36,367 nucleotides of DNA. Origin: a virus (Duplodnaviria; Heunggongvirae; Uroviricota; Caudoviricetes; Crassvirales). Position numbers and translations under genes: made by a program. The notes beneath the pieces are model-generated. The model did not search any database, was not told where the DNA came from, and saw only the letters and a list, made by a program, of their open reading frames with translations. This document shows positions 23,982 through 36,367 of this stretch, in pieces. Each line of letters begins with the position of its first letter. The stretch's first letter is position 1. The stretch lies in the IMG/VR virus record IMGVR_UViG_3300029521_000003; one strand, written 5' to 3'.

Positions 23982-24076
23982 TGGGCACAGAGAGACTCGA
24001 ACTCCCCTACTCCAAAGTCCATTACATCAATTTGATAAAGGAGGGCAGATTTACAGTCTGCTGATGTTATGTACCC
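23982..24076 (-). tRNA. tRNA-Tyr(GTA), lacking a D arm, oversized variable region
   Basis: GGGTACA/TGTGCCC acceptor, GCAGA-CTGTAAA-TCTGC, normal T arm. Confidence 0.7.
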
Positions 24077-29643: not shown

Positions 29644-29733
29644 GGCACATTAGCTCAGTGGTTAGAGCATCATATCCAATGATTTTAAAGGTAGTTGGAA
29701 TGAAGGTCACTGGTTCAAATCCAGTATGTGCTT
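29644..29733 (+). ncRNA. tRNA-like RNA with elongated anticodon arm
   Basis: GGCACAT/ATGTGCT acceptor, GCTC-AGTGGTTA-GAGC D arm, ACTGG-TTCAAAT-CCAGT T arm. The anticodon arm is about twice normal length. Confidence 0.75.
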
Positions 29734-29762
29734 CAATTATTAACAAACTAACTTATAAACAT

Positions 29763-31624: not shown

Positions 31625-32063
31625 GGGGCATGGTTTGGCTTTGATTGCTAATTATTTGGTAAGAGAACATGCAAAGACTGATGGAAAGACATCAAACAAT
31701 TAACTGACAACACTTATAGAGTTGCTGCCTAAACAGGCTGAGCAGCACTTGCTTGGAAACAGAAAGGTGCAAAAGAAGTAAAACTCTTAGTTTGAATCTA
31801 TCATAGTTAGTGATATGGAGAAGGGCAACCTGAAACAGTGGTTATACAATAATAAATTATTGTATTAGGGGACTTCCCGCACTAAAGGGAAGTGTTAGAC
31901 TATGTAGAGCTTCAAGGATTTCTTGCATAGATTAATGCAAGTGGTGGATTGTGTTGATTTCTGGTCAACCCCAGTGGATAACTAACCACATCAAAAATAG
32001 TAAGCATGTGTAATTCTTTTATTAAAGATTGGTAAGACAAGGGTTCGAGTCCCTTATGCTCCA
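31625..32063 (+). ncRNA. ssrA: tmRNA
   Basis: GGGGCAT/ATGCTCC-A acceptor with G3:U70, 3' GAC-AAGGG-TTCGAGT-CCCTT T arm, tag frame DNTYRVAA* at 31706-31732. Confidence 0.9.
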
Positions 32064-32218
32064 CAACTGTAAATGGTTTCTAAAAGGTTCTGCGATACAA
32101 TAAATACAGAAACCAATTGCTAATAGGTAAGCTATAAAGGGTGTTATGGGCTGTCAGACATTTCTACCTTGTAAATCATATAGAAATGCTCAAGAGTAAA
32201 TTCTTAAAACTTAAATAT

Positions 32219-34170: not shown

Positions 34171-35589
34171 ATGGGAAAGTTAAATCCATTAGTGAAGCCA
34201 ACTTCAAAGTTGGATACAGAAAGACTGGCTGGTGGTTCAGGTGCATTGGCAGCTAAACAGAGTAATGTAGCATTATTGAGGAGAGCTGTATTAGCTAATC
34301 TTCTTTGGGAAGATGTTGCATATATGGATGGTAAGAAGGTAGCAGAAGAAATCAAAAGGTTAATACCCTTGTGTCCTGCCATTGATGTGTATAATATTGC
34401 TCTTGAAGCAAGATTAATGCAGAAGCTGAGACATACACCTCTATTCATAGCAGTGGAAATGTGTAAATATCCTGAACATAAGCTGTTTGTAGCTGACTTG
34501 TTGCCTAAGATTATTACAAGGGCTGATATGCTTACAGATTTCTTGGCATTATATTGGAAGGATGGTAAAAAGCCTATCTGTAACCAAGCTAAGAAAGGAT
34601 TGGCAGCAGCTTTTCATAATTTCAATGAATACAAGTTTGCTAAATATGACAGAGATGCAGCCATTAAGCTGAGAGATGTTATGTTCTTATGCAGACCTAA
34701 GCCAAACAATGATTATGAAACCAAGCTGTTCAAGAAGATAGCTGACAGGACTCTTACATCACCTGAAACATGGGAAGTATTACTTTCTGCTGGTGAAGAT
34801 AGGAAAGAGACTTGGACTAAACTAATCTTTGAGAATAAGATTGGTGGTTTGGCTATGTTGAGGAACATAAATAACATGAAGAAGGCAGATGTGGATAGAA
34901 GAGTTATTGTTGAGGGATTGACAAAACTCAGGTCTTCAATGTTATTACCTCTTGACTTCTTAAAGGCTAACAGGATGAATCCTGAGTTCAGTAGAGATAT
35001 TGAAGATGCTATGCTTGAAGCATACAAGAATCTACCTAAACTTCCGGGTAAAACCTTGTTTATAGTAGATGTCAGTGGTTCTATGGGTAGTCTTACTTCT
35101 GGTAATTCTCAGTTCAACAGAATGGACCAAGCATGTGCAATGGCTATGTTAGCTATTAATCAATGTGAGGACTATGAACTTGTTGCCACAGCAGGTAGTG
35201 ATGCAGCAAGAAAGCAAGCATCAGAACATATCAAGTATCCTCAAAAAGGATTTGGTGTATTCAATCAGATTATGGAAACCAGAAATAGAATTGGTGGTGG
35301 AGGTATCTTCACTAAACAATGTCTCGACTGGTGTAGAAACCAGTTTAAAGGAACCAAGTTTGATAGAATCATCATATTCTCAGATTCACAGGATATAGAC
35401 TTCTACTATAATAAGTCTATCCTTCCTGAGCCTTTTGGTCAGTACAATTACATTTGTGATGTATCAGCCAATACAAGAGGTGTGAATTATAGGGGTAGAT
35501 GGACTGCTGAGATTTCAGGTTGGTCAGAGCATTTTCTCACTTATATTGCAGCTTTAGAAGGCTTGCAGAATAAGTTTGAGGAACAATAA
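34171..35589 (+). CDS. Ro60/Rsr-like TROVE + vWA RNA-binding protein
   Basis: 472 aa. FNEYKFAKY, LRDVMFLCRPKP, PETWEVLLS, AMLRN motifs and vWA MIDAS DVSGSM ... SDSQD. Confidence 0.92.
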   Translation: MGKLNPLVKPTSKLDTERLAGGSGALAAKQSNVALLRRAVLANLLWEDVAYMDGKKVAEEIKRLIPLCPAIDVYNIALEARLMQKLRHTPLFIAVEMCKYPEHKLFVADLLPKIITRADMLTDFLALYWKDGKKPICNQAKKGLAAAFHNFNEYKFAKYDRDAAIKLRDVMFLCRPKPNNDYETKLFKKIADRTLTSPETWEVLLSAGEDRKETWTKLIFENKIGGLAMLRNINNMKKADVDRRVIVEGLTKLRSSMLLPLDFLKANRMNPEFSRDIEDAMLEAYKNLPKLPGKTLFIVDVSGSMGSLTSGNSQFNRMDQACAMAMLAINQCEDYELVATAGSDAARKQASEHIKYPQKGFGVFNQIMETRNRIGGGGIFTKQCLDWCRNQFKGTKFDRIIIFSDSQDIDFYYNKSILPEPFGQYNYICDVSANTRGVNYRGRWTAEISGWSEHFLTYIAALEGLQNKFEEQ

Positions 35590-35592
35590 TAT

Positions 35593-35677
35593 AATGCCAT
35601 TAGTGTATTACAGATTTACATCAATGAACTTTTAATTCGTGTAGATTACAAAAATCTGTTAAATGTTCTATGGCATT
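35593..35677 (+). ncRNA. Y-RNA-like unit 1
   Basis: AATGCCAT/ATGGCATT closing stem, TAGTG, ACAGATT/AATCTGT, TTACATC, GTTCT. Confidence 0.7.
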
Positions 35678-35684
35678 TTCTTAT

Positions 35685-35765
35685 AAGACATCATTAGTGA
35701 AGCAAAGAGTTACTTCCTAATGGTTATATGGCAATATTACTCTTTGCACTATTCTATGATGTCTT
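35685..35765 (+). ncRNA. Y-RNA-like unit 2
   Basis: AAGACATCAT/ATGATGTCTT, TAGTG, GCAAAGAGT/ACTCTTTGC, TTACTTC, ATTCT. Confidence 0.7.
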
Positions 35766-35775
35766 TTATTTTTAT

Positions 35776-35917
35776 AGGGGGATAGCTCAGTTGGTAGAGC
35801 AATAGAATGAAAATTATACTCTGTTTAAGGTTCTACAGTAATATGTTAGTGTGGAACAGAGTTACTTCAATAAGCGGGAAAATCTATGGGTCATTGGTTC
35901 AAGTCCAATTCCCTCCA
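35776..35917 (+). ncRNA. tRNA-Phe-like RNA with a permuted Y-like module in the anticodon loop (unit 3)
   Basis: Full D and T arms, ATAGA/TCTAT anticodon stem, 69-nt insert at 35814-35882. Confidence 0.75.
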
Positions 35918-35919
35918 CA

Positions 35920-36009
35920 AAATCACCAGACTTCACAGGGGGTAAAGCCAACAGGAGTTCATAACACTTAGAAAGCACTAAGTTGTGGTTCAGGAATAAA
36001 TGGTGATTT
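35920..36009 (+). ncRNA. candidate structured RNA within the array
   Basis: AAATCACCA/TGGTGATTT stem enclosing two hairpins. Confidence 0.4.
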
Positions 36010-36021
36010 AAAAACTAAAAT

Positions 36022-36160
36022 GGGGATGTGGTGAAATAAAGCAAGTTTTATCCTCTTACAATTGTTCTATGGAAGCATTAGTGATTTGTGAGAGTTACTT
36101 CAAGGTTTACACAATTGTCAGTAAAACAATCAAATGTTAGTTCGAGTCTAACCATCCCCA
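36022..36160 (+). ncRNA. tRNA(GTA)-like RNA with a permuted Y-like module in the D loop (unit 4)
   Basis: GGGGATG/CATCCCC, ATTGT-CAGTAAA-ACAAT, GTTAG-TTCGAGT-CTAAC. Insert of about 66 nt at roughly 36038-36103. Confidence 0.75.
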
Positions 36161-36163
36161 CAC

Positions 36164-36280
36164 AAAGATTAGTGATATACAACACTTACTTCATATCATA
36201 ATTATACAATAAATTTTAAAGTAAGAAAGGAGTAGATTTTATATCAACTTTTAAAGAGTGTTGTAGAATATTCTGTCTTT
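36164..36280 (+). ncRNA. Y-RNA-like unit 5
   Basis: AAAGAT/GTCTTT, TAGTG, TACAACACT/AGTGTTGTA, TTACTTC, ATTCT. Confidence 0.7.
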
Positions 36281-36281
36281 T

Positions 36282-36320
36282 AAAGGCTACCAGTTTTATT
36301 ACTGGTAGCCTTTTCTTTTT
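36282..36320 (+). terminator. intrinsic terminator closing the Ro60/RNA-array operon
   Basis: AAAGGCTACCAGT/ACTGGTAGCCTTT perfect 13-bp stem plus T-tail. Confidence 0.85.
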
Positions 36321-36367
36321 ATGCACATTCTTGTGATAATTAAGATATGTTTTACTAAAAAAAAAAC

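Follow-up and report, generated by a model that had tools for sequence, protein, structure and literature searches.

A conserved RNA gene of YrlA kind, with a permuted handle in the D loop of a predicted tRNA cloverleaf, downstream of Ro60 in a crAss phage

The 36,367-nucleotide stretch of viral DNA analysed here (the window) is a fragment of a human-gut, Kehishuvirus-like crAss phage of the Crassvirales (major capsid protein match, E 1.8e-228). On its plus strand, at 34171-35589, lies a Ro60/TROVE-vWA gene of 472 amino acids (Pfam TROVE 45.3 bits, cut-off 23), whose product is 93.6% identical to gp96 of crAss001 (Kehishuvirus primarius, host Bacteroides intestinalis). The predicted model of the protein is confident (pLDDT 91), and all 13 Foldseek matches at E ≤0.001 are Ro60 structures, among them the phage Ro60 9kop (E 3e-16) and the Ro autoantigen-RNA complex 1yvp (E 4e-14); the best structural match is the Ro60 of Thermus phage phiLo. 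About 2 kb upstream of the Ro60 gene there is a tmRNA gene (31625-32066, plus strand, Rfam 52.7 bits) for which ARAGORN makes no call in the window.

Downstream of the Ro60 gene is an array of five plus-strand RNAs that share a structural module, here called the handle. Handle RNA 1 (35596-35674) is in standard orientation with a variant core; it was found by direct reading, recurs in homologous loci and stands outside the exact-pattern count. Handle RNA 2 (35685-35765, standard orientation, 23-nt cargo) was identified by the handle-core pattern, as were a tRNA body with a permuted handle in its anticodon loop (35776-35917; Rfam tRNA 48.4 bits with a 71-nt insert) and handle RNA 5 (36164-36280, standard orientation, with 65 nt of cargo that includes a conserved purine-rich stretch). 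Between the last two lies the subject of this analysis, the D-loop RNA (36022-36160), a tRNA cloverleaf with a permuted handle before G18G19, recognised by reading, by a parser and by covariation. The array closes with a hairpin resembling an intrinsic terminator (36282-36323, 13 pairs and a T tail), a consensus match only; a promoter scan found 5 sites against 10.6 in shuffles, fewer than by chance. In the three units with a standard handle the RNA's own ends make the outer helix, and in the other two the handle is permuted inside a tRNA. The handle core occurs four times in the window, all within 35694-36192, whereas 0.04 copies would be expected for the window and 100 shuffles gave at most 1; this is not due to chance. 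An earlier note, made from the letters of this DNA, had described the D-loop insert as a permuted copy of the module in the neighbouring RNAs, and this is supported. The spacer between the two tRNA-shaped RNAs (35920-36009) has an inverted repeat at its borders and is absent, or swapped for unrelated stem-bounded spacers, in close relatives.

The D-loop RNA begins 433 nt past the Ro60 stop codon on the same strand, inside the span of about 4 kb taken for a Y RNA gene. Read directly, it has an acceptor stem (36022-36028 with 36153-36159) and discriminator A36160, U8, A14 and A15, a D stem of GTG (36031-36033) and CAC (36110-36112), and an anticodon stem at 36114-36118/36126-36130; the variable loop of 5 nt ends in U48, the T arm occupies 36136-36152 and CCA is not encoded. 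The exposed anticodon arm (36114-36130) bears the loop CAGTAAA, with anticodon GTA and A33, and is one of three alleles in close relatives. A linker of 14 nt (36038-36051) leads into the handle (36052-36101), AA comes after it, and G18G19 follow at 36104-36105, 3' of the handle. The handle consists of an inner helix (36053-36061/36086-36094), TGTTCT (36063-36068), a capped helix (36069-36078), TAGTG (36079-36083) and TTACTTC (36095-36101); its helices pair in an alignment of 31 sequences, and it maps onto the terminal module of Rfam YrlA. The handle is internal and capped by a 4-nt loop, and the ends of the RNA form the acceptor stem rather than a Ro60-binding stem. The stems, anticodon arm and T arm that the earlier note had listed are all where it placed them, and so are the handle parts of its insert, although it left out the 14-nt linker and the trailing AA. 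Two features depart from a canonical tRNA: the D loop, oversized by an insert of about 65 nt, and A33 in this copy. ARAGORN gives no call on the D-loop RNA and Rfam scores its 3' half only (14 bits, E 9.7), which explains why it is unannotated in matching phage records: 20 Bacteroides phage records match, with no annotated feature under the array match, and the cultured phage crAss001 carries an unannotated copy.

Is the tRNA scaffold kept in homologous loci? Samples comprised 53 loci gathered by Ro60 relatedness and at least about 480 loci gathered by DNA patterns, the loose form of the pattern scan yielding chance matches for the most part. A parser run over these loci and the window returned 84 distinct candidates; visual inspection removed 10 that were false parses or had other layouts, which left at least 74 distinct D-loop versions from the Ro60-gathered loci, the pattern matches listed and the window. 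For a candidate to pass the parser, at most one of 5 pairs could be missing in the T stem and in the anticodon stem, one of 7 in the acceptor and one of 3 in the D stem. Part of the stem pairing therefore holds by construction; the handle helices were not required. Each stem position is paired in 73-74 of the 74, with several pair types at nearly all, and the D stem is paired at all three positions in every version, again with several pair types, though only two were required. A14 and the D-loop GG are present in 74/74, U8 in 65/74 and A15/U48 in 60/74. In 57 versions the GG follows the handle, in 12 it precedes it, and in 5 there is a GG on either side. From these, 31 chosen for diversity were aligned. 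RNAalifold, unaided, missed the D stem but recovered the other three tRNA stems (acceptor, anticodon and T) and the two handle helices; once the D stem is specified, 97.5% of 924 cells are paired, against 40-47% in slid controls, and 27 of 30 pairs show compensatory change on both sides, a number reached by 0/500 shuffles. In the two handle helices 92.9% and 94.2% of cells are paired, and two-sided change occurs in 3/5 and 5/5 pairs. The earlier note had held that a scaffold not conserved in homologous loci would speak against it; since the scaffold is conserved across the parsed versions with compensatory changes, that objection fails.

Covariation supports all four stems of the cloverleaf, whereas folding energy alone does not favour the D and anticodon stems. 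The cloverleaf of the window copy lies 2.7 kcal/mol above the minimum, with probabilities of 0.01 for the D stem and 0.06 for the anticodon stem, and with nearest-neighbour energies the predicted minimum pairs the D strand with the linker. By folding alone, the probability exceeds 0.5 for the acceptor in 74/74 homologues, for the T arm in 68/74 and for the anticodon arm in 25/74; for the D stem it does so in 8/74, compared with 9/19 ordinary tRNAs. The cloverleaf, resting as it does on covariation, would need tertiary contacts or a protein to form.

The handle is, judged by its sequence relationships, a divergent form of the YrlA terminal module, because the L223 locus aligns to YrlA and the putative YrlAs of phage CcrColossus bear it, and Ro60 binding is predicted for it. 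In L223 the handle's TAGTG is aligned with the 5' motif of Rfam YrlA and its GTTAC with the CUAc motif, at E 4e-6 and a score under the gathering threshold. In distant phages the standard-orientation handle closes RNAs ordered T arm, loop-closed acceptor, D arm, which is the YrlA order, and these score 25-43 bits against Rfam YrlA in 7 of 10 loci, the gathering score being 69. Three putative YrlAs are listed for CcrColossus in the consulted part of Chen et al. 2014 (PMC4201824); at the coordinates given there, variants of the handle can be read in all three and an anticodon arm in one, and they adjoin a Ro60 that is 35% identical to that of the window. Rfam finds no Y RNA or YrlA in the window, and the D-loop RNA neither shows the permuted YrlA order given above nor reaches the 69 bits of a YrlA match, but at the sequence level it possesses the tRNA-like core of YrlA type (GG, T loop, Levitt pair and YUAY), with TTAC aligned to CUAc. 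The canonical YrlA motif near the 5' end is GNCGAAN0-1G; GNCGAA is found in just 2 of the 74 inserts, and TAGTG stands at the equivalent place in 70. Further handle-bearing units lie beside the listed YrlAs of CcrColossus (L545, 2480-3700), about seven in all by eye. Other handle layouts occur in L034-L038, L043, L051 (first unit), L198, L223, L267 and L201: the acceptor stem is replaced, or a whole tRNA is extended, or the handle is placed where the D and anticodon arms of a permuted tRNA meet, or anticodon and T arms are all that the handle carries.

The D-loop RNA is within the fetched flank in 42 of the 53 loci with a close Ro60 relative and is dispensable, given that the other 11 lack it there. 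Among distant virus records with any handle RNA, 15 of 23 have a TROVE protein, including all four of those at least 90% complete. Where the distant record has a D-loop version, TROVE is present in 7/14 and was not found in the other 7, which are 14-83% complete; five of these seven, retested with our own profile and a vWA model, still gave no match. TROVE is also present in 7 of 10 bacterial-collection assemblies with handle-pattern matches, and among the matches listed from that collection D-loop versions occur in three loci (L311, L322, L338), in assembled bins. The D-loop RNA is a real, conserved and unannotated RNA gene of YrlA kind, and most likely a Ro60-bound Y RNA that mimics a tRNA, a prediction that draws on homology only.

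How could a terminal module come to lie inside a D loop? The earlier note took its presence at two tRNA positions to imply independent grafting of a portable tag, but this does not follow: the module is the YrlA terminal module, and intermediates with a doubled D-arm strand exist. The anticodon-loop RNA (35776-35917) is a circular permutation of the YrlA layout. Where two YrlA-type units stand in tandem, the latter half of the first together with the opening half of the second would read as an intact tRNA with a permuted handle, and we infer that duplication followed by loss of the outer halves in such an array could have produced the permuted handles. In 5 of the 74 versions (L040-L044 and L053 being the loci named) the 3' strand of the D arm is found on both sides of the handle, and copies of this kind may mark the path to the D-loop form. 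The linker in the window resembles a relic of that strand. Independent grafting of the handle is possible, while reshuffling within the array would suffice.

In their anticodon arms the 74 versions display 24 distinct seven-base loops, amounting to 16 anticodons and 12 amino acids, and one acceptor stem carries seven different loops, Tyr, Pro and Thr among them; with arms varying on shared acceptors, faithful decoding is unlikely. The loop is nevertheless 7-8 bases long in 74/74, and purine 37 is kept in 67/67 seven-base loops (24/24 distinct ones). U33 is present in 54/67 (19/24 distinct), and all 10 A33 copies have GTA or GTC anticodons; the A33 of the window copy is a lineage variant. GTC and GTT loops always accompany G73 (9/9 and 6/6), as in Asp and Asn tRNAs. 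Twelve of the 24 distinct loops are identical to loops among 556 ordinary tRNAs of the same loci, compared with 6.0 and 5.8 in two controls, each of which reached 12 in 2 of 2000 draws. The ordinary set excluded 87 ARAGORN calls lying close to a handle motif; with these included, 14 of 24 matched. The other 12, including those of the window copy (A33) and of crAss001, match no ordinary tRNA loop and would imitate a host substrate poorly. In 27 close relatives, three anticodon/T-arm alleles are represented 9, 9 and 9 times and occur together with either handle allele. Mapped on the Ro60 gene tree, they require 10 changes, where the minimum is 2 and the shuffled mean 13.2, so labels are still somewhat clustered (shuffles as low in 5/200). 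This pattern fits exchange under selection, and also plain recombination in a repetitive array.

The idea that the D-loop RNA supplies a missing tRNA-Tyr was rejected, as crAss001 has another loop at the site and a Tyr-like gene almost without a D arm is present in both phages. A pattern search for Tyr tRNA had matched in 0 of 12 records, the pattern being blind to that gene, which lies on the minus strand of the window at 23982-24076; its variable region is long and its anticodon arm is that of Tyr (GTA). Neither ARAGORN nor Rfam picks it up, but our own model did, and the same sequence is in crAss001, unannotated. Another tRNA body (29644-29734, plus strand) has an extended hairpin instead of an anticodon loop; its homologues receive differing ARAGORN anticodons, the crAss001 copy is called pseudo and the L025 copy has a handle-like motif. 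It is possibly a decayed handle RNA.

RNA data took the form of assembled contigs only. Contigs of runs X9-X12 and X17 match locus L011 at ≥99% and cover all or most of its array without a splice joint. One contig of run X16 starts with the first base of the anticodon-loop RNA and passes into adapter 1-2 bases beyond the D-loop RNA's discriminator, and that of X17 ends 3 bases short of it; contig ends near the same 3' end in two runs of two studies are a weak hint of expression. In four runs of one study (X9-X12), a contig joined to adapter begins at L011:5703, which is position 11 of the anticodon-loop RNA; reverse transcription may have stopped there, close to a processed 5' end.

The cargos of the standalone RNAs bear likenesses to ribosomal RNA. 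Within the purine-rich stretch of handle RNA 5 (36164-36280), 9 bases are complementary to the 3' end of the 16S rRNA from one Bacteroidota genome, which is not significant against shuffles; the stretch is kept across many loci and could bind the anti-Shine-Dalgarno sequence. In the last handle RNA of L034, L036, L037, L042, L045, L051 and L052 a cargo hairpin loop resembles a conserved stretch of 23S rRNA, which we take to be the peptidyl-transferase centre; the loop is kept while its stems differ, and the likeness is not significant per sequence. These resemblances were discarded as evidence, best matches of 10-13 bases being reached by 9-100 of 100 shuffles.

What might a phage gain from such an RNA? 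The handle would dock it on the phage's Ro60 ring, and the docked RNA would offer its anticodon loop and acceptor end as a decoy to host enzymes that cut or modify tRNAs. tRNA cleavage is an established anti-phage defence, according to the sections consulted of two reports (PMC10264068, PMC7824862). This putative decoy role is our best single guess, put forward tentatively and at somewhat less than even confidence; the 26 tRNA genes that ARAGORN calls in the window count against it. The earlier note had suggested a bait for anticodon nucleases, and the diversity of the anticodon arms lends that suggestion indirect support. Ranking close behind, though itself rather doubtful, is the explanation that the tRNA body is a mere shell for end processing, for stability or for tethering Ro60 to a nuclease such as PNPase, in the manner of RYPER, with the anticodon arm an inherited passenger. 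Such a role is established for bacterial Y RNAs, and in the consulted portions of the literature cutting by RNase P and the addition of CCA are reported for the YrlA of M. smegmatis (PMC4201824) and a phage Ro60 with its Yrls is reported to bind and dampen host PNPase (PMC12135203). The acceptor and T arm, moreover, fold well alone and the anticodon arm less so, and degenerate anticodon loops are tolerated. A passenger arm is harder to square with the constant loop length, the invariant purine 37 and the excess of loops matching real ones, but recent capture of real tRNAs could leave the same pattern. A broader idea, which we also rate as rather doubtful, is that in gut crAss-like phages Ro60 forms the base of a display particle on which one handle mounts interchangeable imitations of the translation machinery, the D-loop form being a full-size, chargeable but non-decoding tRNA whose arm is swapped between strains under host defences that target tRNAs. 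If true, these phages would be countering host defences with an RNA system whose alleles cycle, an idea that lends itself to tests in crAss001 and PhiCrAssBcn isolates.

The remaining explanations have less in their favour than the decoy role. It is unlikely that the RNA acts as a guide or scaffold that brings tRNA-binding host proteins to Ro60 for a phage enzyme of a repair or ubiquitin-like E1 system: a ThiF/E1-family gene is present in 10 of 21 records, including all five close crAss relatives, but in G001 it lies about 14 kb from the D-loop RNA, and no such cassette is annotated beside the crAss001 Ro60. (The five relatives, G001, G027, G029, G030 and G032, have one such gene each.) A working tRNA, charged and decoding despite the insert, would be consistent with the retention of all core positions and the 7-bp acceptor and with the constant G73 of GTC and GTT loops; it is very improbable in view of the Tyr, Pro and Thr loops on one acceptor, A33 in the window copy, D-loop regions of 61-83 nt and the different loop at the same site in crAss001, by which the RNA fills no fixed gap in the tRNA set. 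Most improbable of all is that the handle is an intron or small mobile insert, excised to leave a normal tRNA. Its occurrence at several tRNA positions and the repeated D-arm strand around a few copies could be read that way, but the same module also ends free-standing RNAs, linker lengths vary, and RNA contigs from 8 runs contain no joint that removes the handle from either tRNA body, although contigs drop rare forms.

The purpose of the tRNA-like domain in bacterial Y RNAs is described as an open question in the consulted part of PMC4201824. In the natural variants described here one handle is found at several places in the tRNA, and in the D-loop form the two functional ends of the tRNA stay free. 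The RNA stands unannotated in crAss001, which serves as a culturable representative of the most abundant order of gut phages, and with 20 matching records and three alleles at hand, both the decoy idea and a Ro60-binding rule other than GNCGAA are directly testable. The earlier note knew of no described Y RNA attached through a D loop, and our literature search agrees: among what were largely titles and abstracts, where reviews may describe more Y RNA classes, there was neither a D-loop-attached Y RNA nor a description of the Ro60 RNAs of crAss phages. The geometry, with tRNA ends and anticodon arm retained and the handle in the D loop, appears to be new.

Its nearest counterpart is YrlA (RF02553; PMC4201824; 10.1101/312249), which, as far as the consulted sections of these sources describe it, is likewise encoded on the same strand adjoining Ro60, with a two-helix terminal module on a tRNA-like domain that has D and T loops and the Levitt pair. 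In YrlA, however, the tRNA is permuted, its acceptor is loop-closed and the module is formed by the ends of the RNA, and the Salmonella YrlA is without an anticodon loop; in the D-loop RNA the tRNA keeps its normal order, its acceptor ends are free and an anticodon arm is present, the module itself is permuted within the D loop, and the GNCGAA motif of the handle has been replaced. The Deinococcus radiodurans Yrn1 of RYPER (PMC4201824, in part) is also a Ro60 partner with a T arm and possibly an anticodon arm, but there the Ro60 stem takes the place of the acceptor stem, which is whole in the D-loop RNA; the Yrn1-type layout is found in sister RNAs of the same arrays (L034-L038, L051). Thermus phage phiLo, with Ro60 and the neighbouring Yrl1 and Yrl2 (PMC12135203; 9KOP, 9L5Y), provides another phage Ro60 with adjacent RNAs, but its Yrls have CGAA motifs, and no tRNA body or anticodon arm is described for them in the portion consulted. 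Finally, the phage tRNAs thought to counter anticodon nucleases (PMC10264068, in part) are proposed to answer the same host pressure and have loops with changed bases; they are tRNAs of the usual kind, predicted to withstand cleavage and to serve in translation, unlike the D-loop RNA with its large insert and its lack of a fixed identity.
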